Positions 1,624-37,885 of a DNA stretch of 64,000 nt are shown here, piece after piece. The notes beneath the pieces are model-generated. The model was not told the origin of the DNA. It saw nothing but the letters and a program-made list of their open reading frames with translations, and ran no database searches. Position numbers and translations under genes: made by a program. Positions within the stretch are counted from its first letter, which is position 1. Each line of letters begins with the position of its first letter. The stretch is from Candidatus Sericytochromatia bacterium (GTDB lineage Bacteria > Cyanobacteriota > Sericytochromatia > S15B-MN24 > VGJW01): the NCBI GenBank assembly GCA_035285595.1, contig JAYKGV010000061.1, forward strand, positions 6,874-70,873, written 5' to 3'.

Positions 1624-3126
1624 TCAGGCGGGCCAGCGCCCGTAGGTTCGGGTCAATTGCCCGAGGTGGTGGGCGATGCCCTCGGTCAGGCCCGGCTGCC
1701 CCAGACGCCAGCCCCAGTTGCCCTCGGCTGCCCCGGGCAGATTCATCCTGCCTTCGTCTCCCAGCGACAAGAGGTCCTGCAGCGGCACGATGACCGTATC
1801 TGCGGGAGAACGCATGGCAAGCTCGATCAGCGCCCACGCCGGGTCGTCCACGGGCTTGCCGAGATATGCAGCCACACGCTGGCGCTCCTCCTGACTCGCC
1901 CCCTGCCACCAGCCCCGGGTGGTCGCGTTGTCGTGCGTCCCGGTGTAGACCACGCTGAGTGGGGAGTGTCGATGAGGCAAGAAATCATTGGTCGGCTTGC
2001 CATCCCAGGCGAATTGCAGGATGCGCATCCCAGGCAGGGCATTGTCATCCCGCAGGGCGGCGACGGGAGGCGTGATGACGCCCAGGTCCTCCGCAATCAG
2101 CGGCAGGTGACCGAGGTGCCCGCGCATGGCATCGAAGAACTCTTGCCCCGGGCCAGGTTGCCAAGAGCCACTTTCGGCGGTGGGGGCACCTGCCGGGACG
2201 GCCCAGTAGGCTTCGAAGCCTCTGAAGTGATCGAGCCGCAGCAAGTCGCACAACGACAGCGCATGCGCCAGCCGGCGTGCCCACCAGGTGTAGTCGTCCT
2301 CGGCCATGGCCTTCCAGTCGTACAGCGGGTTGCCCCACAGTTGCCCCGTCTTGCTGAAGTAATCGGGCGGCACTCCTGCCACCGCGGTTGGCCGGCCTTC
2401 GCGATCGAGCAGGAACATGGCTCGGTCGCGCCAGACATCGGCCGAGTCATACGCCACGAAGATCGGGATGTCCCCGACCAGCCTCACCCCGTCTACCGCC
2501 GCTCGCTGCCGCAGCGCATCCCACTGCTCGCGGAACAGGAACTGGCACAGGATGTGGAAGGCCACGTCATGGCCCAGCCGATGGCGGGCTTCGGCCAGTG
2601 CGCCGGGATCACGATCCCGCAACGGAGCAGGCCACTGGGGCCAGGGCGCACCTTGGTGAGCCGCCTTGAGAGCCATGAAGAGCGCATAGTCCTCGAGCCA
2701 ACCGGCCTGGGCGCGACCCCGGGTGAATCGCGCGAGCCGCTCCTTCAGCGCCGGATTCGCGCGTTGGTCCCAGTGGCGTTGCACCTCACGCAGCAAGGCC
2801 TGCTTGGTCTCTATGACGGGCCCGAAACGAATGCGCCCCTCGTCGAACCGAGGATAGGCTGCCAACTCTCCCTCGGTCACAAGCCCGGCTTCGGCCAGGG
2901 CCTCCGGCGAGATCAGATTGGGATTGCCCGCGAATGAGGACAGGCACTGGTAGGGGGAATCCCCGAAGCTCGTGGGGCCCAGAGGCAAAACCTGCCAAAG
3001 GGTCTGGCCCGACAGTGCCAGGAAATCCACGAAGCTGTGGGCCATGGGACCGAGATCCCCGATCCCGAAGGGACCGGGCAGGGAGGTGGGATGAAGCAAC
3101 AGGCCGCTTGAACGGGGATGACGCAT
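1624..3126 (-). CDS. malQ: 4-alpha-glucanotransferase (amylomaltase, GH77)
   Basis: Strong GH77 similarity (LLHPTSLPGPFGIGDLG..., GNPLYDW, LRLDHFRGF, YTGTHDN). Start taken at internal ATG 3124-3126 (MRHPRSSGLLLHPTSL), with GGAGG 5 nt upstream. The ORF track's 610-aa version is an N-terminal over-extension. Confidence 0.9.
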   Translation of the reverse strand: MRHPRSSGLLLHPTSLPGPFGIGDLGPMAHSFVDFLALSGQTLWQVLPLGPTSFGDSPYQCLSSFAGNPNLISPEALAEAGLVTEGELAAYPRFDEGRIRFGPVIETKQALLREVQRHWDQRANPALKERLARFTRGRAQAGWLEDYALFMALKAAHQGAPWPQWPAPLRDRDPGALAEARHRLGHDVAFHILCQFLFREQWDALRQRAAVDGVRLVGDIPIFVAYDSADVWRDRAMFLLDREGRPTAVAGVPPDYFSKTGQLWGNPLYDWKAMAEDDYTWWARRLAHALSLCDLLRLDHFRGFEAYWAVPAGAPTAESGSWQPGPGQEFFDAMRGHLGHLPLIAEDLGVITPPVAALRDDNALPGMRILQFAWDGKPTNDFLPHRHSPLSVVYTGTHDNATTRGWWQGASQEERQRVAAYLGKPVDDPAWALIELAMRSPADTVIVPLQDLLSLGDEGRMNLPGAAEGNWGWRLGQPGLTEGIAHHLGQLTRTYGRWPA

Positions 3127-3145
3127 GGTGCCTCCGGCTTTGGGT

Positions 3146-4447
3146 TCAGCGGATCGTAGCAGACGACGAGCCGTCCCGGCAGGCCCGTGCATGGACTGCG
3201 GCCGCCCGCCCCGCGAGGAACCCCGTCGACCAGGCCGCCTGCAGGTTATAGCCCCCCACATAGCCATCGACGTCGAGGATTTCACCCGCCAGATAGAGTC
3301 CCGGCACACGCCGCGAGGCCATGGTCTTCGGGTCCACCTCGCGCACGTCCACCCCGCCGGCCGTGACTTCGGCGGCCTCGAAGGAATGCCAGCCCTCGGG
3401 CCGGAAGGCCCAGCCCTTGAAGGTCTCCGCAAGGCGCCTGCGTTCCTGGCGTCCAAGCTCCGCCAGGCGGCGGTCTCCGGGCACTCCCGCGGCGTCGAGA
3501 AGGTCAGTCACCAGTGCACGTGGCACGGTCTCGGGGACCAGAGACCGCACGGTCCGTCCGCCTTCGCGCGCCATCGTCCCGAGGAGCCTCTTCAGCACGT
3601 CCTCCTGGCTCTCCCCGGGCAGCAGGTCGAACAGCAGGTCACCGGTGGTTTCCCCTTGGACCCACGAGGCAGCGAGTGCGCGACTGAGTTGCAGCACCAC
3701 CGGGCCAGAGAGACCGAAGTGCGTCCACAGCACGTCACCGTCCCACGGCACGGGCCCTGCCTGTCCGGCCAGGCGGACCCTCCCTCTGATGCCGCGCAGC
3801 GCGACCCCGGCATGGGGGGCCGTCCCCGATAGCCGCAGCGGCACGAGCGAAGGGAAGGTGGGCACGACGGTGTGGCCAAGACGCCGCAGGATCGGGTAGC
3901 CGTCACCGGTGCTGCCCGACTTGGGGAACGACCGCCCTCCGGTGCACCAGACCACGCTGCGGGTCGGCAGCACGGCTCCGCCGTCGAGCCCCAGGCCCCT
4001 CACCGAACCCGCCCCGTCCCGCAGGATGTCTCTGGCCGGAGTTTCCGTCGCCAGCGTGACGCCTGCCCGGCGCATCGCGCGGACCAATGCGTCGATCACA
4101 TCGCCAGACTTGCCGCTGTCCGGGAAGATCTTGCCATAGGGAGCCTCCACGCGGGTCGGGACACCTTCGCCATGCAGCAAATCCAGAAAAGCCCGGGGCG
4201 GGTAGCTTCTGAGCGCGTGGCGAAGAAACGGCCCGTTGCCGGGAAACATCCTTTCCCACGCGCGGAGATCGTCCAGCGCATTGGTGACATTGCATCGACC
4301 CCCGCCCGATATGCGAATCTTGGTACCGAGCTTGACGGTTTTCTCGAGCAGCAAGGTCCGAGCTCCGGCCCTGGCAGCCTCGAGTGCGGCCAGCATGCCG
4401 GCCGCGCCGCCCCCGACGACGGTCACGTCCCAGGTGTCGTTTGCCAT
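3146..4447 (-). CDS. NAD(P)/FAD-dependent oxidoreductase, HI0933/BaiN-like flavoprotein
   Basis: Rossmann motif VVGGGAAGMLAA near the N-terminus and the ISGGGRCN motif typical of the HI0933 family. Start taken at MANDTWDV (ATG 4445-4447). Confidence 0.8.
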   Translation of the reverse strand: MANDTWDVTVVGGGAAGMLAALEAARAGARTLLLEKTVKLGTKIRISGGGRCNVTNALDDLRAWERMFPGNGPFLRHALRSYPPRAFLDLLHGEGVPTRVEAPYGKIFPDSGKSGDVIDALVRAMRRAGVTLATETPARDILRDGAGSVRGLGLDGGAVLPTRSVVWCTGGRSFPKSGSTGDGYPILRRLGHTVVPTFPSLVPLRLSGTAPHAGVALRGIRGRVRLAGQAGPVPWDGDVLWTHFGLSGPVVLQLSRALAASWVQGETTGDLLFDLLPGESQEDVLKRLLGTMAREGGRTVRSLVPETVPRALVTDLLDAAGVPGDRRLAELGRQERRRLAETFKGWAFRPEGWHSFEAAEVTAGGVDVREVDPKTMASRRVPGLYLAGEILDVDGYVGGYNLQAAWSTGFLAGRAAAVHARACRDGSSSATIR

Positions 4448-4487
4448 TTTGGCCCGGCTCACATGGGCATGGTAGCGTGAATCCCCC

Positions 4488-5297
4488 ATGACGCCCCCTC
4501 GCTCGCCCCGCAAGCCGGCACCGCCCGGCCAGATCCTCAAGGGGCCCGGATTCACGATTCCGGGCCTGCCCGTTTCCTTGCCCAGCCGTATCTACACGCC
4601 ACCTGGATACGGTCATGACGACCGTCGCTGGCCGGTCGCAGTCATGTTCGATGGCCAGAACCTGTTCGAGGACGAGGGGACCTTCGCAGGAGGATGGCAA
4701 CTCCATCGGGTCCTCGATCGTCGTGCCCAGCGCGGGCTGCGCGTGCCGGTGGTGGTCGCCTTGCATCACGGCGGCGTGACACGGGTGGAGGAGTTGTCAC
4801 CCTGGCCGGTGGAGGAGGGCAAACAGGCGCACGGACTGGCTCTGGCCGACTGGATCGCGGCGGACCTTTCGTCCTGGATCCGAGAGCACCTCAGGATTTC
4901 CGAGGAACGGGACGACTGGCTGATCGGCGGTTCTTCCATGGGAGGCCTGGCCGCGCTGGTCACGTTTTTCCGCCACAACGACCGCTTCGCCCGGCTGCTG
5001 TGCATGTCGCCCTCGCTCTGGGTCGCCGATGGCGAGGCCTTCCCCTTCGTCGCGCGGGCACCGGCGTGGGGACGGCCGAGGATCTGGATGTGCTGCGGAG
5101 GACGCGAGGCCGGCGGCTATCCCCTCGAGCATGCGGGTTGGATGGCGCAGCTGTTGGAGCGCAAAGGCTTCAAGGCCGGGCGCGATCTTCTCTGGCATCC
5201 CGTCAAGACCGGACGCCATGATGAGGTCTCCTGGCGAAGGCGCCTTCCCGCAGCCCTGCGTTTTCTCTACGAGGATCCTGTGCCGGCGAGGCGTTAG
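4488..5297 (+). CDS. Putative esterase (alpha/beta hydrolase, enterochelin-esterase-like)
   Basis: GGSSMGG nucleophile-elbow motif; general similarity to putative esterase family proteins. Confidence 0.6.
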   Translation: MTPPRSPRKPAPPGQILKGPGFTIPGLPVSLPSRIYTPPGYGHDDRRWPVAVMFDGQNLFEDEGTFAGGWQLHRVLDRRAQRGLRVPVVVALHHGGVTRVEELSPWPVEEGKQAHGLALADWIAADLSSWIREHLRISEERDDWLIGGSSMGGLAALVTFFRHNDRFARLLCMSPSLWVADGEAFPFVARAPAWGRPRIWMCCGGREAGGYPLEHAGWMAQLLERKGFKAGRDLLWHPVKTGRHDEVSWRRRLPAALRFLYEDPVPARR

Positions 5298-30229: not shown

Positions 30230-30637
30230 TCAATCGGTCGAGACCGGGCTGTCCCACGGGACGGGCCGCCCATCCGGCCCGATGGTCACGAAAATGGCCT
30301 CCGCCGTGGTGACCACGACGGGATCCGCATCACGGCCCCTGCGTCGTGCTTCGACCCTGATACCTATCGTCAGGCTTGTCCGGCCTCGATGCTCGAGCCG
30401 AGTATAGAAACTGACGGTGTCTCCCACGTGGACCGGTTGTTCGAACTTGACCTCTCGCAGGGCGACCGTCACGAAGCGATGATCCGTGTGGCGACCTGCC
30501 TCGACGGCCGCGGCGAGGTCCAAGTGGGATAGGATCACCCCCCCGAAGATCGTCCCGTGCTCGTTGGTGTCCTTGGGCAAGAGCAGGACGCGAATCGAAG
30601 GTTCCTGGGGCCAGGTGTCAGGTTGAGCGGTCAACAT
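30230..30637 (-). CDS. Hotdog-fold acyl-CoA thioesterase
   Basis: LLPKDTNEHGTIFGGVILSHLD...VHVGDTV is typical of YciA/4HBT-like thioesterases. Convergent with the SRPBCC gene; the stops are 3 nt apart. Confidence 0.75.
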   Translation of the reverse strand: MLTAQPDTWPQEPSIRVLLLPKDTNEHGTIFGGVILSHLDLAAAVEAGRHTDHRFVTVALREVKFEQPVHVGDTVSFYTRLEHRGRTSLTIGIRVEARRRGRDADPVVVTTAEAIFVTIGPDGRPVPWDSPVSTD

Positions 30638-30717
30638 CAGCGGGTGGTTTCCGTGAGAATGGAGGCAGGAACGCGGGACTTGTGTTAAGTATAGATGAGT
30701 AAGGCGTTATCACAGGT

Positions 30718-32010
30718 TTGTCGAGGCGCGGCATGTATAGGCATTTCACAGGCATCGCCACGTTGCTGGCGCTCTTTGCCTGCGGTCGTCTGCCCGGCAC
30801 CCTTCCTGCCGCCGCCGGCTCTCGCACCAGTTCCGCACAGGCTGTCGAAGGGGAGGTCGTGGTGCGGCTTGCCGAAGGCGCTTCGTTGCCTGCGGGCTGG
30901 GTCGTGCGGCGCCGGATGGAGGGTCTGGGCGCCGTCGTTGCGGCTCTTCCTGGCGGCATGGGCGTGCAATCGGCCGTGGACAGCCTTGGACGACACGCTG
31001 GGGTCTTGTGGGCCGAGCCCAACGTGCGGTTCGACTTGCCTGATCCGCTGCCAGCACGTTCGATTTCCCTTCCGGGATTTTCCGTTCGTAACGAGGAGCC
31101 GAACCTCTGGCACTTTTTGCGGATCCAGACGCGGGAAGCCTGGAGTACGACCAAGGGAAGGGGCGTCCTCGTCGCGGTGGTCGACACCGGCATCGACGCG
31201 GCCCATCCCGCGTTCCTGGGCCGCGTCCTGCCGGGTTACGATTCGCTCGATCGGGACAATGATGCCCGCGATGACAACGGCCACGGCACCCACGTGGCGG
31301 GTATCATCGCTGCGCAGACGTCCGACATGACGTTGCTTGGCGTCGCTCCCGAGGCACGCATCCTTCCGGTCCGGGCGCTCGGTGATCGCGGCGGGACCGC
31401 CGAATCGGTGGCGACTGGCATCCAGTGGGCCGTCGGTCGGGGGGCGCAGGTCATCAACCTGAGTCTAGGGTCTCCGGTCCGCTCACGTCTGATCGAGGAT
31501 GCCATCCGCGGGGCCCTTGACCGAGGCGTGGTGGTGGTCGCTGCGATGGGCAACGCCGGCGACCGGGGCAATCCGCGCATATTCCCGGCCAGCTTGCCGG
31601 GGGTGGTGGCTGTGGGCGCAACGGATCCGCTCGATCGCAGGACCCCGTGGTCGTGCTTCGGTCGCTGGCAGTCGCTTTCGGCTCCGGGGTTCGGTATCTG
31701 GTCCACGTTTCCGACCTATGAGACGTCGCTCGTCCGCTTTGCCCGCGAAAATCCGGCGGCTTTTCCTCCCGAAAATCGCGTCGACACTTTTGCGGCCGCA
31801 TTGTCCGGAACGAGCCAGTCGGCCCCTGTCGTAGCGGGCATCGTCGCTTTGGTGCGCTCGGTGGCACCGGAGTTGGCACCTTCCCAGGTGAACAAGGTCT
31901 TGCAGGCCACGGCGCGCGACCTCGGTGCACCGGGCTTCGACAGTTATCATGGGCACGGGCTGGTCCAGGCGGCGTCCGCGCTCAGGACGGTACGCGCGAC
32001 CCAGCCCTGA
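30718..32010 (+). CDS. Subtilisin-like serine peptidase (S8), secreted
   Basis: Signal peptide, then catalytic triad motifs VAVVDTGID, HGTHVAGIIAA and GTSQSAPVVAG. Confidence 0.9.
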   Translation: MSRRGMYRHFTGIATLLALFACGRLPGTLPAAAGSRTSSAQAVEGEVVVRLAEGASLPAGWVVRRRMEGLGAVVAALPGGMGVQSAVDSLGRHAGVLWAEPNVRFDLPDPLPARSISLPGFSVRNEEPNLWHFLRIQTREAWSTTKGRGVLVAVVDTGIDAAHPAFLGRVLPGYDSLDRDNDARDDNGHGTHVAGIIAAQTSDMTLLGVAPEARILPVRALGDRGGTAESVATGIQWAVGRGAQVINLSLGSPVRSRLIEDAIRGALDRGVVVVAAMGNAGDRGNPRIFPASLPGVVAVGATDPLDRRTPWSCFGRWQSLSAPGFGIWSTFPTYETSLVRFARENPAAFPPENRVDTFAAALSGTSQSAPVVAGIVALVRSVAPELAPSQVNKVLQATARDLGAPGFDSYHGHGLVQAASALRTVRATQP

Positions 32011-32027
32011 GGGATGTCCCCTGGGCC

Positions 32028-33248
32028 ATGATCTTCCTGTCGCAGTACCTTAATCGCCCCGTGAGGGGGGTCGCCGGTGCGCGTCTGGGGGTCTTGAGAG
32101 ATGTGACCTTCACGGAGGATGGGGATTTTCCGGTTTTGACCGGACTCGTGGTCAGTCGTGGCAGACGACGGGTCGTGGTGCCATGGTCCGATGTCGATCG
32201 GTGTACGCTCGACACCTTTGTGCTGCGGGGTACGGGACCGTGGCCCGAGGTGGCTGGAGTGGACCGACTTCTTGCCTTGGACGTCATGGACAGTCAGGTC
32301 GTTGATATCGACGGGGCCCACGTCGTACGGGTCAATGACCTCCAGCTCGCGTGGCAAGGCACGCGCCTGCGTGTGGTGGGCGTCGATATCGGGCCGTGGG
32401 GACTTGCCAGAAGACTTGGATGGGCGCCTGCCTTGGCGTGGGTCAGCAGGACCCTTCGCTGGCAGCCACCGGAAGGCCTGATCCGTTGGGACACGGTGGA
32501 ACCGGTGGACAAGCAGACCTCCACCGTGCGGCTTCGGGTCTCCAGCGACCGGCTCGCGCGCCTGCACCCGGCCGACCTCGCGGACATCGTGGCCGAGCTG
32601 GGCCACGAACAACGCAGTCACGTGCTCGAGCGGCTGGATGATGCTCAGCTGGCAGACATCATGGAGGAGGCGAGTCCGGAGTTGCAAAGCGCCATCCTGG
32701 ACAATCTTGACGAGGATCGAGCGGCGGATGTCCTTGAAGAGATGGAGCCCGATGAGGCCGCCGACCTGCTCTCCGAATTGAGTGAAGACCGCGCACGGGA
32801 TCTCATCGGTCGCATGGATGCGGAAGATGCGAGTGACGTCCGGAATCTTCTGGCTTATCAGGAAGGCACCGTAGGAGCCTTGATGACGACCAGCTACTTG
32901 GAGATACCTGCAAGCTGGACGGTAGGGCGGGCCTTGGATTGGGTTCGTCGCGAGGGTGCCGACGACGAGTTGTGCAGTTATCTCTATGCGGTCGACGAAG
33001 CGGGCATCCTGACCGGTGTCCTGTCGTTCCGGCACCTGGTCCTTGCCACGGCCGACGCACCCGTGACTGGCCTTTTCCCGGATCACCTCGTCACGGTGGG
33101 TGTCTTGGAGCCTGCACGCGCGGCCCTTGAGAAACTCTTTCACTACAATCTGCTGGCCGTGCCGGTGACTCGCGAAGACGGACGCTTGCTCGGCGTGGTC
33201 GGCATTCTGGATGCCTTGGCACTCGTCCACGAACCGGAGGAGGACTGA
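32028..33248 (+). CDS. PRC-barrel + MgtE N-terminal domain + tandem CBS domain protein (soluble MgtE-like sensor)
   Basis: N-terminal PRC-barrel-like region, an acidic helical MgtE_N region (LDEDRAADVLEEMEPDEAADLLSEL), then a CBS pair. No TM domain. Confidence 0.7.
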   Translation: MIFLSQYLNRPVRGVAGARLGVLRDVTFTEDGDFPVLTGLVVSRGRRRVVVPWSDVDRCTLDTFVLRGTGPWPEVAGVDRLLALDVMDSQVVDIDGAHVVRVNDLQLAWQGTRLRVVGVDIGPWGLARRLGWAPALAWVSRTLRWQPPEGLIRWDTVEPVDKQTSTVRLRVSSDRLARLHPADLADIVAELGHEQRSHVLERLDDAQLADIMEEASPELQSAILDNLDEDRAADVLEEMEPDEAADLLSELSEDRARDLIGRMDAEDASDVRNLLAYQEGTVGALMTTSYLEIPASWTVGRALDWVRREGADDELCSYLYAVDEAGILTGVLSFRHLVLATADAPVTGLFPDHLVTVGVLEPARAALEKLFHYNLLAVPVTREDGRLLGVVGILDALALVHEPEED

Positions 33249-34576
33249 TGCCGGGCACCGGTAAGCTGCACGCTTCCGAGGCCGAAGCAGACGCTCTCGT
33301 CACCATTCGTTTCAACAAGCGACGATGGCTGTTGCTGCTGGGGACCCTGGGGCCAGGTATCCTTGCCTCGAGCGCGGGCAATGACGCGGGTGGCATCGCG
33401 ACCTATGCCACGGCGGGCGCACGATATGGTTACGGTCTCCTGTGGGCCTTGCTGCTCATCACCGTGGCGTTGGCCATGATTCAGGAAATGGCTACGCGGA
33501 TGGGGGCGGTGACGGGCAAGGGCCTGTCCTCACTCATCCGCGAACGCTTCGGCTTGCGGGCGACAGTCTTCGCCATGGGCTGCCTCCTCGTGGCGAATGT
33601 GGCCACGACGCTGGCCGATTTTGCCGGCGTGGCGGCCGCCGCAGAACTCTTCGGCGTCCCACGATGGGTGGCGGTGCCGCTGGCGGGCGTCGGCCTGTGG
33701 TGGTTGGTCGCGCGAGGGAGCTTTGCCCGGGTCGAACGTACCTTCATGGCACTGGCGTTGGTGTTCCTGACCTATGTCGCGGCCGCCTTCCTGGCGCGTC
33801 CGGATTGGACGGAGGTTCTGCGAAGCCTCGTGGTACCCCGGGTTCCCGCCACTCCCCCCGGCCTCGCTTTCCGTGACCACCTTCAGGGCTACTTGCTTGT
33901 GCTGATCGCCACCATCGGCACCACCATCACTCCGTGGATGCAATTCTTCCTGCAGGCGACCGTCGTCGACAAGGGTGTGACCATCCGGCAGTACGGATTT
34001 GCGCGCTTTGATGCTTTTTTCGGGGCCTTCACTGCAGATTTGGTCTCGTTCTTCATCATCGTGGCGACGGCTTCCGCCCTGTTCTATCCCGAGATGCTGC
34101 CGCATCCCCTCGAGGATGCCGCTGCGGCGGCCTCTGCGTTGGTGCCCGTGGCGGGCCCCCACGCCGGTTGGCTCTTCGGGGCTGGCTTGCTCGGGGCCTC
34201 GTTGCTTGCGGCCTCTGTCGTGCCGTTGGCCACGGCCTATGCCGTCTGCGAGGCCTTCGGCTTCGAGGCCGGACTGGGCAAGGACTTTCGTCGTGCCCCG
34301 GTCTTTCTCGGCCTCTACACCTTGCTCATCGGGGTCGGGGCATGCGTCGCGATGTGGCCCGGCCTTCCCCTTCTGGCCGTGATGCTCGTTGCCCAGGACA
34401 TCAATGGAATCCTTTTGCCCGTCATCCTCGTCTACATGCTGGGACTGGTGAACGACCGTCGCCTCATGGGGCCTCATGTCAACGGCGTGGTCTACAATGC
34501 GGTGGTTTGGGGGATGGTGATTCTGGTGTCCTTGCTGACGGCCACCATGGTGGTGACCAGTTTCTGGCCCGTGTGA
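33248..34576 (+). CDS. Nramp-family (SLC11) transporter with non-canonical metal site; NRMT-like
   Basis: LeuT-fold Nramp topology. TM1 motif reads ...SAGNDAGGIATY (DAGG in place of DPGN). TM6 reads IGTTITPWMQFF (TPW in place of MPH). The ATG overlaps the upstream stop (TGATG). Confidence 0.7.
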   Translation: MPGTGKLHASEAEADALVTIRFNKRRWLLLLGTLGPGILASSAGNDAGGIATYATAGARYGYGLLWALLLITVALAMIQEMATRMGAVTGKGLSSLIRERFGLRATVFAMGCLLVANVATTLADFAGVAAAAELFGVPRWVAVPLAGVGLWWLVARGSFARVERTFMALALVFLTYVAAAFLARPDWTEVLRSLVVPRVPATPPGLAFRDHLQGYLLVLIATIGTTITPWMQFFLQATVVDKGVTIRQYGFARFDAFFGAFTADLVSFFIIVATASALFYPEMLPHPLEDAAAAASALVPVAGPHAGWLFGAGLLGASLLAASVVPLATAYAVCEAFGFEAGLGKDFRRAPVFLGLYTLLIGVGACVAMWPGLPLLAVMLVAQDINGILLPVILVYMLGLVNDRRLMGPHVNGVVYNAVVWGMVILVSLLTATMVVTSFWPV

Positions 34577-34590
34577 CGGAGGAGGCGAAT

Positions 34591-35433
34591 ATGAACCGGC
34601 GAGCCGTGGCGGTCGTGATGGCTGCTGCCCTGCTTGCGGGCTGCGGGGGCGAAAGCCGCACGTCCGATGAAGGTGATCGATACGTGTCTGCACAGGTGTC
34701 CGGGGACAAGGACGCCATTAACCTTGACGCCGTCCACGAAGCCTTCTTCAAGACGCAGGGGAAGGATTTCGATGGTTGGATGCAGGCGTTCGAGAAGCGC
34801 GTGAACGAGATCCATGAGGGGGAAGGGGTCGTGGCCATCGATGCCCGGCGCAAGGACGGCATGGTGAAGGTCACCGGCTACCTTGACGAGGACAGCCAAC
34901 CTGGATTCGACGAGCGCGGCGATCGGAAGCTTTTTGCCTTGGAGCAGACAGGGGCTGCGGAGGGGGCGAAGGGCTTTCCCTACCAGGTGACCGGAGCTCA
35001 GGGACAGCCCTTTTTTCAGGGCTATCCGCCCCCGCAGTATCACTCGGGAAGTCTGCTTGACAACCCATTCGTGCAGTTCATGGTCCTGAATCAGATCTTC
35101 AATGGCGGGTTCGGCTACAACACGCCTTGGCGGCGAACCACCGTTCTGCGCAACCATCGGGACACGTTCCGTTCGTCCCCTTCGTGGCGCCAGCAGACCG
35201 CCCGCAACAAGGGTTTCGTCTCCCGCTGGTTCGGAAAGAAGGAGCCGGTCACCAGCCGACGCGGCTTCGGGTCCTGGGGCTCCGGGACGTCCACGAAGAG
35301 GTCCGGTTCGGCAAGCAGCCGGCGTAGCTGGTTCGGAGGCTCCGGCGGAACCGGATCTTCGTGGGGTGGGCGTCGGTCCTCGGGATACTCGGGTGGCGGG
35401 GCTCGGCGGAGCTGGGGTGGTCGCCGTCGATAG
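34591..35433 (+). CDS. Lipoprotein with C-terminal Gly/Ser/Arg/Trp-rich low-complexity tail
   Basis: GGAGG RBS 6 nt upstream of ATG 34591. Signal peptide with lipobox LLAGC. The tail reads ...SWFGGSGGTGSSWGGRRSSGYSGGGARRSWGGRRR. The ORF-track version starts inside the Nramp gene in another frame. Confidence 0.6.
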   Translation: MNRRAVAVVMAAALLAGCGGESRTSDEGDRYVSAQVSGDKDAINLDAVHEAFFKTQGKDFDGWMQAFEKRVNEIHEGEGVVAIDARRKDGMVKVTGYLDEDSQPGFDERGDRKLFALEQTGAAEGAKGFPYQVTGAQGQPFFQGYPPPQYHSGSLLDNPFVQFMVLNQIFNGGFGYNTPWRRTTVLRNHRDTFRSSPSWRQQTARNKGFVSRWFGKKEPVTSRRGFGSWGSGTSTKRSGSASSRRSWFGGSGGTGSSWGGRRSSGYSGGGARRSWGGRRR

Positions 35434-35455
35434 TCCTTGAAAAGGGGGAGACACT

Positions 35456-36409
35456 TTGTCACGCTTGCCAACGCTTGTCTGGACCGAACCAGCCGAGGGC
35501 TTGAGGCTCACCTTGGTGTTGTCTCCGGCCGAACTGCAGGGCACGGCGGCCGACCTGGTTTTCGGCGTCCTGGGCGAACCGGAGGAGGCGACGCGGCGGT
35601 TCGGCCTCGATGCTGATCGTTCCGTGGTGCTCCGTACATTGCACGAACGCGTGTTCAGCCGCGAGGGGAGCGAGCTCGAGATTCGAGAGGGCATTGAGAT
35701 CCTGGCGGGGGAAGAGCCCCTTGATCCCGATGCGCTGGTGAAGGGCCTGTTCGATGAGGCCCAGGGCCCAGTCGTTCTGACGTTGCGATCCGATGACGAG
35801 GCCTCGCGGCGGGCCCGCCACATGCAGGCCTATGGCTTGATGGGGCTGGTGTGGGCCTGTCGCGATGAGGGCCTCGCCCTTCCGGCCGATCGGACCGAAG
35901 CGATGCGGTCTTTGTTGCTGGAAGCCGAACGGCGCGACCTGCTCCGCTTGGAAGCCGCCAAACATCGATTTGTCCTGACTGAAACCGGCCGGCGCATGGC
36001 GGAAGGGCTTGCCCGTGAAGCCGCCGATCTGGTGGAACGCTTTGACGTCTTCGGTGATGTCGAGGGTCTCGGCGGGGGAACTCTCCGCTTCCACACGGGT
36101 CACGGGGTAGATCTTCGGGTGCCCATGTGGGAACGGGCGGGCGTCGAGCCCTTCCGCGCGAGGTTCCTGCTGGGTTTGCATGATGGCGAGTTCGAGCAGG
36201 AGCCGGATTTCCCGCTGGTGCTCCTTCGGCCTTCCTGGTATGGCCGGATTTTCAATGTGGTGGAGGAAGCCCACCATCCCGACGACCTGCCCCACGGGGC
36301 GTTGGACAGGGTGGCTGCTGCGGCGGCTGACGAGGGTCTGGTGGAGGAGACGGTCGTGACCCACGGGGGAGGCATCTCACCCTGGTGGTGGGCCTTGCTG
36401 CTGCTATGA
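35456..36409 (+). CDS. Hypothetical protein
   Basis: 317-aa ORF, acidic, with no recognisable motif. Protein-like composition. Confidence 0.5.
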   Translation: MSRLPTLVWTEPAEGLRLTLVLSPAELQGTAADLVFGVLGEPEEATRRFGLDADRSVVLRTLHERVFSREGSELEIREGIEILAGEEPLDPDALVKGLFDEAQGPVVLTLRSDDEASRRARHMQAYGLMGLVWACRDEGLALPADRTEAMRSLLLEAERRDLLRLEAAKHRFVLTETGRRMAEGLAREAADLVERFDVFGDVEGLGGGTLRFHTGHGVDLRVPMWERAGVEPFRARFLLGLHDGEFEQEPDFPLVLLRPSWYGRIFNVVEEAHHPDDLPHGALDRVAAAAADEGLVEETVVTHGGGISPWWWALLLL

Positions 36410-36453
36410 GGCAACGCCGACACGGGTACAGTCCTTCAGGAGGATGCCTGCCC

Positions 36454-37071
36454 GTGAACCGATGGTCGAACCGCCTGACGGGTCTCGTGCTCGTCTTGGC
36501 CATGTTTTTGGGCAACGTTGCCCCGGCTAGCGCCGAGGAGTCTCAGGGCGCGGTGTTCGTACCCTATGCCTTCGAGATGGTGGACTTCACCGAGGCCGAT
36601 CCCAGTTCCGATGCCTCCTTTCTTCCCAGCAAGGGGACCCTGTCGTCAGCAAGAGATGCAACGACCAAGCATCTCGTATTGGTCACGGTCCGGATCACCA
36701 ACCTGAACGATCTTGACGCGGGCGAGGGACGCAAGTTCGAAGCTGCAGAGTTCACGCTCGAAGGGGTCAATGGCGGAGTACATCGTCCACACCCCTACTC
36801 GCGTGCGACCACGAGGGTGCGGGCCAAGCCCGGAGAGACCGTGCAGATGACCATGGGGTTCTACATTCCAGCGGGTCGATATGTTCTGGTCTTCAGGGAT
36901 CCTGACATCGATGGCAAGATTGTCGAGGCTGAAATCGGCCCTCCCTTGCAGGTGGACGACGATACCCAGACGGCCGTGCTCTGGGGCGTGGGTAACTTCC
37001 TGCTGGCAGGTGCCATGGTCGCCCTGCCCGTCGTGGCGGCCCTGCTGCGGACCAACTCGCTTTTCCGCTAG
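36454..37071 (+). CDS. Hypothetical secreted protein with C-terminal TM anchor
   Basis: Start placed at GTG 36454 (GGAGG 10 nt upstream), giving the signal peptide VNRWSNRLTGLVLVLAMFLGNVAPASA|EE. C-terminal hydrophobic helix present. Start uncertain. Confidence 0.45.
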   Translation: MNRWSNRLTGLVLVLAMFLGNVAPASAEESQGAVFVPYAFEMVDFTEADPSSDASFLPSKGTLSSARDATTKHLVLVTVRITNLNDLDAGEGRKFEAAEFTLEGVNGGVHRPHPYSRATTRVRAKPGETVQMTMGFYIPAGRYVLVFRDPDIDGKIVEAEIGPPLQVDDDTQTAVLWGVGNFLLAGAMVALPVVAALLRTNSLFR

Positions 37072-37138: not shown

Positions 37139-37885
37139 CTAGCTCTCTGGAGTTGGGGTCGGCGTGGGCTCGGGTGCCTCTGATGCCGGAGTGAGGGCGG
37201 CTTCCTCGGCAGACCTCACGGGAAACGCCTTGGTGGGGCTACCTTGCATCACTTTGCCGGCTGCGGTTCGCAGACGCAGATTGAGCCGTGCGCTCGTCGG
37301 CGGTGCCTCGTTCACATCGTCTGCGAGCGAGAACCAGAAAACGCCGCCGATGCTGCAACTGGATTCGGGCGTACCTGAGCACGGCTTCAGGGTCAAGGCA
37401 AAGGACTTGGAGGCGACGGCCGTCCAAGGGGAGGTGGCGATGATATCATCGGTAGCGGAAGGCGTGGTTTCCGTACTCAATTCGAGAACGACCGTAGCGG
37501 GGCTCTGCCCCTTGTGTTCGTAGTCGACCTCGTAACGCCACGCGTAGGTTCCGCCCGGCAGAAAGGGGCTCTGGGAGCGCGATGCGGGTTCTTCGCCCGC
37601 CACGGCTTCGACCAGGTCCGTCACAAGGTCAGGTGCTGCGGCTGGGACCAGGTCCGCCAGTCTGAACTCCGAAGGCTCACTGTCTGGGGCAGGGGACGCC
37701 ACCGCGACTTCCTGGCCGTCCTTGAGGGCCTTGAGTCTGAAGGTCCCTGCCGACTCACCCGCCTCAAGCTTGAGCTGGGTCCAACGCACCGGCGCTTCTG
37801 CCGCAGCCGCCGGGAGCAAACGTAAACCATCCCCCGAGGCACAGGCCGTCAGCAGCAACGAGAGACCCACACAGGCTCGACGCAT
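37139..37885 (-). CDS. Hypothetical lipoprotein
   Basis: Signal peptide with lipobox LLTACAS. Pro/Thr-rich C-terminus (PEPTPTPTPES). Confidence 0.55.
   Translation of the reverse strand: MRRACVGLSLLLTACASGDGLRLLPAAAAEAPVRWTQLKLEAGESAGTFRLKALKDGQEVAVASPAPDSEPSEFRLADLVPAAAPDLVTDLVEAVAGEEPASRSQSPFLPGGTYAWRYEVDYEHKGQSPATVVLELSTETTPSATDDIIATSPWTAVASKSFALTLKPCSGTPESSCSIGGVFWFSLADDVNEAPPTSARLNLRLRTAAGKVMQGSPTKAFPVRSAEEAALTPASEAPEPTPTPTPES

Follow-up and report, generated by a model that had tools for sequence, protein, structure and literature searches.

Introduction

The closest described relatives of the locus analyzed here are the mgtE-nramp operons of Shin et al. 2014 (PMC4072509), who named the NrmT clade of Nramp-related Mg2+ transporters (NRMT), found that two NrmTs of Clostridium acetobutylicum, each working alone, restore Mg2+ uptake in Bacillus subtilis, and reported that most nrmT genes adjoin a gene for a homologue of the MgtE cytoplasmic domain. 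The same study concluded that high affinity for Mg2+ is confined to some of the NrmTs, and the role proposed for the partner was either feedback regulation or that of a chaperone. The locus described here lies at positions 32028 to 34576 of a 64,000 nucleotide stretch of DNA (the window) from contig JAYKGV010000061.1 of a Candidatus Sericytochromatia bacterium and consists of a gene for a soluble PRC-barrel/MgtE_N/CBS protein (gene A) followed by a gene for an SLC11 transporter (gene B). It is an ordinary nrmT operon of the type reported in 2014, and its NRMT clade, metal site and MgtE-like neighbour have all been published. A first-pass annotation of this DNA had considered the pairing of an MgtE-like protein with an NRMT to be undescribed; this central claim of novelty fails, because Shin et al. 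had both reported the pairing and tested one pair. What our survey adds is the tandem PRC module of the partner, a PRC-type subfamily of MgtE, and the near-obligate linkage of the two genes. The likeliest reading, by analogy with MgtE, is that gene A acts in trans as a Mg2+ sensor which restrains an uncoupled NRMT uniporter, and we put the probability of this reading at roughly 0.5. In the literature searched, which left most subscription journals outside it, we found no later (post-2014) work on the partner, none on a PRC barrel with NrmT, and no publication on the full-length PRC-MgtE subfamily.

Within the NRMT clade, the transporter of Eggerthella lenta (EleNRMT) carries Mg2+ and Mn2+ but not Ca2+, and does so without coupling to protons and without any partner protein, including in liposomes (Ramanadane et al. 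2022, PMC8806188). Residues of the D55, G58, T224, A227, W229 and Q379 type define the enlarged NRMT site; D55 and Q379 are essential, with Q379A strongly impairing transport, while T224 is required for Mg2+ but not for Mn2+ transport (PMC8806188). In MgtE of Thermus thermophilus the cytoplasmic Mg2+ ligands are E59, D91, D95, D226, D247 and D250, with E258 and D259 on the plug helix (PMC5882242).

Identity of the gene pair and its transporter

Both open reading frames occupy exactly the positions on the + strand that the first-pass annotation had given (Table 1), and the stop/start overlap it had pointed out was read again from the sequence: the stop of gene A and the start of gene B form ggacTGATGccg, with TGA at 33246-33248 and ATG at 33248-33250 having one base in common (longer context, GGACTGATGCCG). 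A GGAGGAGG Shine-Dalgarno sequence is located within the 3' end of gene A, 4 nucleotides ahead of the ATG of gene B, and this internal ribosome-binding site together with the TGATG overlap is consistent with translational coupling of the two genes. Between the genes of related pairs, 4-nucleotide overlaps or short gaps are frequent. Since both proteins have homologues in the thousands, we regard the two as real genes and not as chance open reading frames of GC-rich DNA. For the gene A protein 3767 homologues were obtained at E<=1e-5, the best 120 of which share its architecture; it is identical to a public protein (P0001) and 79% identical to another (P0002) named Candidatus Sericytochromatia. 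The gene B protein is identical to an NCBI protein (P0121) of a Candidatus Sericytochromatia metagenome-assembled genome (MAG).

Gene B was matched by the Nramp family (PF01566) over residues 50-413 (E 5.6e-89). Among solved structures the best match was EleNRMT (7qia, E 2e-112 over residues 13-437), whereas the next best SLC11 protein was a canonical Nramp at 8.5e-23 and all others were weaker. The protein also fell below the NCBIfam MntH cut-off (129.8 vs 430 bits) and did not reach that of TIGR01197. Judged by these sequence comparisons, gene B clearly belongs to the NRMT clade and is not a canonical Nramp. The first-pass annotation had described an Nramp-related transporter with DAGG in place of DPGN and TPW in place of MPH, and had allowed that its motif alignment might be shifted; when the motifs of the first and sixth transmembrane helices were aligned with solved SLC11 proteins the residues of gene B were in register with EleNRMT, so the motifs are not shifted and the NRMT assignment stands.

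Residues D46 and G49 of gene B, within the sequence GNDAGGI, align with D55 and G58 of EleNRMT, and D46, A47, G48 and G49 are unchanged across 26 aligned NRMTs. In alpha-6, within GTTITPW, T225 takes the position of T224 of EleNRMT by alignment, T228 that of A227, which is the position of the canonical Met ligand, and W230 that of W229, which is the position of the first alpha-6b (proton-coupling) His; with L235 at the second alpha-6b His position, both proton-coupling His are replaced. The position of Q383 in alpha-10 is occupied by Q in 115 of 134 scorable homologues. An NRMT-type site (D-x-x-G/A with T-T-x-(A/T/S)-(P/S)-(W/Y/F)) was found in all 150 related transporters and the canonical DPGN/MPH site in none of them; their alpha-1 motif was D-A-x-G in 148 cases, with Asn at the fourth position in no case, and their Met position was occupied by Thr, Ala or Ser. 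TTITPW, the sequence in gene B, is the second commonest alpha-6 variant (39/150, vs 60/150 for TTIAPW), and Thr for Ala at the Met position is the sole departure of this site from that of EleNRMT.

Linkage of the two genes

That the two genes form a pair, as proposed in the first-pass annotation, was upheld by a co-occurrence analysis run in both directions. A transporter-seeded scan with one genome per species and an NRMT alignment as query yielded 599 loci; 80 of them were retained, 74 with enough upstream sequence. The partner gene was directly upstream on the same strand in 58 of these 74 loci and elsewhere in the locus in 2, and the loci with an upstream partner span Acidobacteriota, Chloroflexota, Nitrospirota, Bacillota, Desulfobacterota, Omnitrophota, Actinomycetota and archaea. 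A partner-seeded metagenome scan gave 570 loci (80 kept, 74 informative), and here the NRMT gene was directly downstream in 70 of the 74. Two of the four exceptions were full-length channels with their own MgtE pore; for partner genes without transmembrane segments, an NRMT gene follows in 70 of 72. The partner/NRMT linkage is among the tightest transporter-accessory gene linkages in the survey, holding across many phyla and with the MgtE interdomain Mg2+ ligands kept.

Other arrangements of these genes were also seen. In a Thermoleophilia MAG (L021, 1245-5227) two NRMT paralogues in tandem (2563-3939 and 3956-5227) come after the partner gene. The order is reversed at L084 (1752-4227), with the Nramp gene first and an MgtE_N-CBS gene 1 nucleotide later, and this partner has no recorded PRC match. 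At L081 (505-2523) and L082 (1082-2581), the latter having no adjacent NRMT gene, the partner gene is preceded by a divergently oriented GAF-GGDEF (diguanylate cyclase) gene.

The MgtE-like half of the partner

Pfam analysis of gene A identified a PRC domain (residues 2-57, E 5.5e-8), MgtE_N (179-279, E 6.3e-25) and CBS (353-400, E 1.9e-9). There was no Pfam match in gene A to the transmembrane pore domain of MgtE (PF01769), the protein stopping 6 residues past the CBS pair, and its TIGR00400 score of 138.6 was below the cut-off of 232.75. Although the Pfam CBS match spans residues 353-400 only, the AlphaFold 2 (AF2) model has both CBS motifs, and about 125 residues were aligned to CBS pairs by Foldseek. 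With phmmer, residues 174-400 matched the MgtE cytoplasmic domains 2oux (E 2.4e-27) and 2yvy (E 2.3e-26), and 8gps was also matched. Foldseek comparison with 8gpv, 2oux and 2yvy gave E values of 1e-18 to 4e-20, a target-normalised template modelling score of 0.8-0.9 and a root-mean-square deviation of about 2.3 Å; for T. thermophilus MgtE the figures were E 1e-18 and 2.3 Å over 230 columns. PDB entries 5x9g and 7m1t are also among the structural neighbours. The earlier description of gene A as a homologue of the MgtE cytoplasmic sensor without transmembrane segments was therefore borne out by Pfam, phmmer and Foldseek. The full-length AF2 model had a mean predicted local distance difference test score (pLDDT) of 83.9 with a predicted template modelling score (pTM) of only 0.54, which leaves the arrangement of the two halves undefined.

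The MgtE ligands (PMC5882242) were mapped onto gene A by alignment and their conservation was scored in 30 family sequences. Residues E59, D91, D95 and D247 of MgtE correspond to D210, D242, D246 and D395 of gene A and are kept in 27-30 of the 30 sequences, D395 being invariant. Gene A keeps 4 of the 6 cytoplasmic ligands checked, at what would be putative Mg4 (D91/D247, here D242/D395), Mg6 (D95, here D246) and Mg7 (E59, here D210) sites.

The C-terminal end of gene A differs within the family. In the clade of the window the protein ends in an acidic HEPEED sequence (33228-33245), while most homologues have a basic LPxAW(K/R)(K/R)RLPRL tail, which we take to be similar to the RLPWL found at the start of the first transmembrane helix of MgtE.

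The PRC module and full-length PRC-MgtE channels

When residues 1-175 of gene A were modelled alone with AF2 the pLDDT was 85 and the pTM 0.78. The best PDB matches of this module were CdpB1/B2 (8qzo, E 7e-5), the H subunit of the photosynthetic reaction centre, RimM and CdvA. Its second PRC-like unit (residues 82-132) is weakly like the first (hhalign, residues 85-120 against 6-40, E 9e-4) and was modelled with strands at 90-120 and helices at 123-143. This unit is the stretch of gene A with the most invariant residues: 15 positions (D85, D88, Q90, D93, G96, R101, N103, D104, D120, G122, G125, R128, R129, G131 and W154), including five Asp and an Arg-Arg pair, were identical in 30 of 30 sequences.

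The first-pass annotation had taken the PRC barrel for an unusual extra module, a view that did not survive the survey. PF05239 was present on nearly all of the best 120 of the 3767 gene A homologues, and the module was found in all 58 directly upstream partners, although in one of these (L070) it was weak by Pfam. It is the standard N-terminus of a partner family of about 410-420 residues, the N-terminal 170 of which form a conserved tandem PRC module. A library search with the PRC module alone gave 1173 matches at E<=1e-3, and the same module also heads complete MgtE channels of about 595-656 residues, with the order PRC, MgtE_N, CBS and PF01769 in 8 of 10 tested. Since the PRC module also heads complete MgtE channels, the best reading of gene A is that it belongs to a PRC-type MgtE subfamily but is without the pore. 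Proteins of the full-length PRC-MgtE subfamily include P0255, P0264, P0265, P0270, P0271, P0274, P0319 and P0332, and further full-length channels are found at L135 (2076-3968) and L152 (2959-4935).

Two loci join features of the full-length channels with an NRMT gene. At L166 (1752-4802) a full-length PRC-MgtE with its pore is followed 6 nucleotides later by an NRMT gene (DAGG / TTVAPW). At L055 (56-3460, a Coriobacteriales MAG) the partner has 621 residues, with a C-terminal extension of about 200 residues rich in transmembrane segments, and is followed by an NRMT gene; no similarity of this extension to the MgtE pore was found by Pfam or BLASTP. A strict choice between an own MgtE pore and an adjacent NRMT was therefore rejected, L166 having both and L055 a transmembrane-rich tail as well as an NRMT. 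The arrangements at L055 and L166 suggest that PRC-MgtE and NRMT genes were paired ancestrally and that the MgtE pore was lost later, and the two Mg2+ transporters side by side at L166 may be the ancestral state. That the PRC barrel is a docking domain specific to NRMTs was likewise considered, and was weakened by the presence of the same module on full-length MgtE channels.

The NRMT encoded at L055 has an Ala/Pro-rich N-terminal extension of about 100 residues. At L165 (334-3391) what comes after a full-length PRC-MgtE gene is not an NRMT gene but a pair of TrkA_N (K+ transport regulator) genes.

Features and genomic surroundings

The features of the two genes are listed in Table 1.

Table 1. 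Coordinates in the window of gene A, gene B and their sequence features.
Feature	Position	Strand	Basis or remark
Gene A: PRC / MgtE_N / CBS protein, MgtE-like NrmT partner	32028..33248	+	406 residues, soluble; open reading frame and Pfam
PRC-barrel 1, residues 1-70	32028..32237	+	PF05239 over 2-57; AF2 and PDB matches
Second PRC-like half-barrel and helical hairpin, residues 82-157	32271..32498	+	hhalign, AF2 model
Flexible linker, residues 158-173	32499..32546	+	pLDDT < 50 in full-length AF2 model
MgtE_N helical domain, residues 174-279	32547..32864	+	PF03448 E 6.3e-25, phmmer, Foldseek
CBS pair, residues 280-400	32865..33227	+	Pfam, AF2, Foldseek
GGAGGAGG ribosome-binding site and TGATG overlap	33236..33250	+	read directly from sequence
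Gene B: NRMT-clade SLC11 transporter	33248..34576	+	442 residues; open reading frame and Pfam
Alpha-1 metal site D46-A47-G48-G49	33383..33394	+	aligned to EleNRMT D55..G58
Alpha-6 site T225-T226-I227-T228-P229-W230	33920..33937	+	aligned to EleNRMT, within GTTITPW
Q383, alpha-10	34394..34396	+	EleNRMT Gln379 by alignment

Gene A starts 17 nucleotides after a gene for an S8 peptidase. Five packed genes on the + strand at 30718-36409 (S8 peptidase, partner, NRMT, a lipoprotein-like protein and a 317-residue protein with no assigned family, with gaps of 17, -1, 14 and 22 nucleotides) may be transcribed as a single unit. A scan of 30300-35000 gave no promoter-like site and one terminator-like hairpin, inside gene A, which is fewer than in shuffled sequences.

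The open reading frame at 34591-35433 (+) begins 14 nucleotides past the stop of the NRMT gene with its own GGAGGAGG site, and its product, which has no Pfam match, combines a lipoprotein-type signal (…LLAGC) with a long C-terminal tail rich in Gly, Ser, Arg and Trp; an open reading frame of similar length occupies this position in the Sericytochromatia relatives L168 and L169. Beyond it, consecutive open reading frames at 35456-36409 (+), 36385-37071 (+) and 37139-37885 (-) encode 228-317 residues each, with no Pfam match. The order of the neighbouring genes is kept only within Sericytochromatia (L168, 79% identity; L169, 56%) and is absent around the pair in other phyla. We considered the neighbours as parts of the system and rejected them: an AMP-binding enzyme, an SRPBCC protein, a 4HBT thioesterase, the S8 peptidase, the lipoprotein-like protein and the open reading frames with no Pfam match (four in all) are unrelated to metal transport.

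Proposed mechanism and alternatives

The cytoplasmic domain of MgtE shuts its channel as cytosolic Mg2+ rises. Our proposal that gene A restrains the NRMT in trans is built on this analogy and starts from direct observations, namely the identities of the two proteins, the metal-site signature, the conservation of the ligands and the genetic linkage. Like EleNRMT, gene B would import Mg2+ (and Mn2+) in largely hydrated form and with no coupling to protons, and would for that reason be driven by the membrane potential and the ion gradient alone. Gene A, as a PRC-type MgtE channel reduced to its cytoplasmic regulatory part, would dimerize through its CBS pair and bind cytosolic Mg2+ at the interface of the N-domain and CBS pair, in the equivalents of Mg4, Mg6 and Mg7. 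In its compact, Mg2+-bound form it may dock on the NRMT from the cytoplasmic side and slow or block uptake, by which an otherwise ungated uniporter would gain negative feedback like that built into MgtE and CorA, while co-production of the pair would be secured by the TGATG overlap and by the strong ribosome-binding site inside gene A. That the two proteins bind each other, which way the regulation runs and which ion is carried in the cell are the steps that we infer from the analogy.

Because EleNRMT works without any partner, gene A would be regulatory and not catalytic, and a feedback brake is physiologically plausible, given that the ion which EleNRMT carries as an uncoupled uniporter is kept at millimolar level. 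In its most specific form the proposal is that gene A is a detachable Mg2+-sensing gate which closes the NRMT in trans, with the second PRC unit (D85, D88, D93, D104, D120, R128, R129) as a docking surface or an extra metal site; we offer this tentatively, at somewhat less than even odds. If this is true, gene A would become the first regulator demonstrated to act in trans on an SLC11 transporter, and a sensor domain would have moved between families of Mg2+ transporters, with an MgtE-type module acting on an unrelated carrier of the LeuT fold.

We have to admit that a number of observations weigh against a brake of this kind. Within 4 kb of 14 of the 74 NRMT genes there was no partner, and since EleNRMT and the Clostridium NrmTs also work alone the partner must be dispensable for transport. 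When the Acidobacterium capsulatum pair was co-expressed the rescue was no better than with the transporter alone (PMC4072509), a result which weighs little against a brake: that test, the only one published, scored improvement of rescue, and at low Mg2+ none is to be expected from an inhibitor. In gene A the Mg5 ligands are altered, D226 being replaced by N374 and D250 by A398, where 25 of 30 relatives have D or E at the D250 position. It has no plug helix, which relays the signal in MgtE, and hence no E258/D259 ligands of Mg2/Mg3, and it is without the basic C-terminal tail of most homologues. At L166 a full-length PRC-MgtE gene adjoins an NRMT gene, so adjacency might reflect co-regulated parallel importers which form no complex. 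Finally, no Rfam element, including the M-box (RF00380), was found in the whole window at gathering scores, and no M-box or other Rfam element in 30300-32300 at E<=10; as the window is without an M-box, nothing of that kind ties this copy to Mg2+ rather than to Mn2+.

This last point bears on the possibility that gene B is mainly an importer of Mn2+ or of mixed divalent ions, with a partner that senses Mn2+ or another signal, a question which is independent of the role of the partner. The pair of A. capsulatum, which has no riboswitch, rescued a Mn2+-uptake mutant fully and a Mg2+ mutant only partly and behaved mainly as a Mn2+ importer (PMC4072509), Mn2+ is also carried by EleNRMT (PMC8806188), and gene B has Thr at the Met position where EleNRMT has Ala. 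However, gene B has T225, the equivalent of the Thr without which EleNRMT no longer transports Mg2+ but still transports Mn2+, as well as G49 and Q383, and the ligands kept in gene A are those of the MgtE Mg2+ sites. Of 16 related loci sampled, 4 have an M-box ahead of the partner gene, 2 to about 450 nucleotides from its start, and at one of these (L009) the transporter has the same DAGG/TTITPW/Q signature as gene B. We find a mainly Mn2+-directed importer rather doubtful. Adjacency of the two genes could also stem from shared ancestry or co-regulation, with gene A a pore-less remnant of a PRC-MgtE that has little function or now serves other targets, for instance as a CBS regulator responding to nucleotides or Mg2+. 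Full-length PRC-MgtE genes exist, one directly before an NRMT gene (L166), and intermediates such as L055 with its transmembrane-rich tail, the orphan partners at L082, L101 and L153 and the negative co-expression test of 2014 all fit with such a history. Nevertheless the form without transmembrane segments is intact, with invariant residues, in many phyla, an NRMT gene comes next in 70 of 72 cases, the two genes keep a fixed order and are often translationally coupled; as such linkage is not expected of a relic or of an unrelated regulator, either is unlikely.

Of the active roles other than a sensor that restrains the transporter, that of a cytoplasmic metal acceptor, chaperone or buffer which takes the ion from the transporter exit was offered as an alternative by Shin et al. 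2014 (PMC4072509). It would suit a protein that is very acidic and has many invariant Asp, five of them in the second PRC-like unit. Free cytosolic Mg2+ is millimolar, however, and we know of no Mg2+ chaperones. Stoichiometric buffering of Mg2+ by one co-translated protein would be negligible, and the MgtE domain homologous to gene A is a low-affinity sensor and not a carrier (PMC5882242), all of which makes this role quite improbable. The linkage evidence would serve equally well for a positive factor, that is, an activator, assembly factor or stabiliser of the NRMT at low cytosolic Mg2+ (or Mg-ATP), and the CBS pairs of CNNM/CorC and MgtE, represented among the structural neighbours by 5x9g and 7m1t, also bind ATP. 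To our knowledge, though, the cytoplasmic Mg2+ sensors described on Mg2+ channels all act by closing. NRMTs work without a partner in B. subtilis and in liposomes, and rescue was not improved by co-expression (PMC4072509), so that we regard a positive factor as very improbable.

Comparison with known systems

The pairs of C. acetobutylicum (CA_C0685, CA_C3329) and A. capsulatum (Acp2976/Acp2977) consist of the same two genes in the same order as in the window, and the A. capsulatum pair, like that of the window, is without an M-box. The Clostridium operons, in contrast, are controlled by an M-box and the CA_C0685 partner is split into two genes, in both of which respects the window differs. 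Unlike the 2014 operons, the window pair belongs to a Candidatus Sericytochromatia genome and lies 17 nucleotides behind an S8 peptidase gene. The 2014 paper describes the partner as a small N-terminal fragment of MgtE, and the PRC-barrel module of about 170 residues is unmentioned there (PMC4072509).

EleNRMT (PDB 7qia, 7qic, 7qji, 7qjj) has, like gene B, the D-A-G-G sequence in alpha-1, the ion-ligating Thr, the alpha-6b Trp and the alpha-10 Gln. It differs in having Ala and not Thr at the Met position and Glu133 where gene B has Asp124 as the acidic residue of helix 3, and it was characterised alone, whereas gene B has an MgtE-like partner gene upstream. The canonical Mn2+/Fe2+ Nramps (DraNramp, ScaDMT, EcoDMT, MntH) have the LeuT-type SLC11 fold, the alpha-1 Asp and the alpha-10 Gln in common with gene B, but their DPGN and A..MPH motifs and proton-coupling histidines are missing from it, and the similarity is only E 1e-11 to 1e-23.

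MgtE of T. thermophilus (PDB 2yvy, 2yvx, 5x9g) has in common with gene A the MgtE_N domain, the CBS pair and the Mg4, Mg6 and Mg7 ligands. Gene A differs from it as a separate soluble protein with no plug helix and no transmembrane pore, with a changed Mg5 site and with an extra tandem PRC module at the N-terminus. The full-length PRC-type MgtE channels have the same tandem PRC module and MgtE_N-CBS region as gene A, with 36-42% identity over the PRC module, but keep the MgtE pore that gene A is without.

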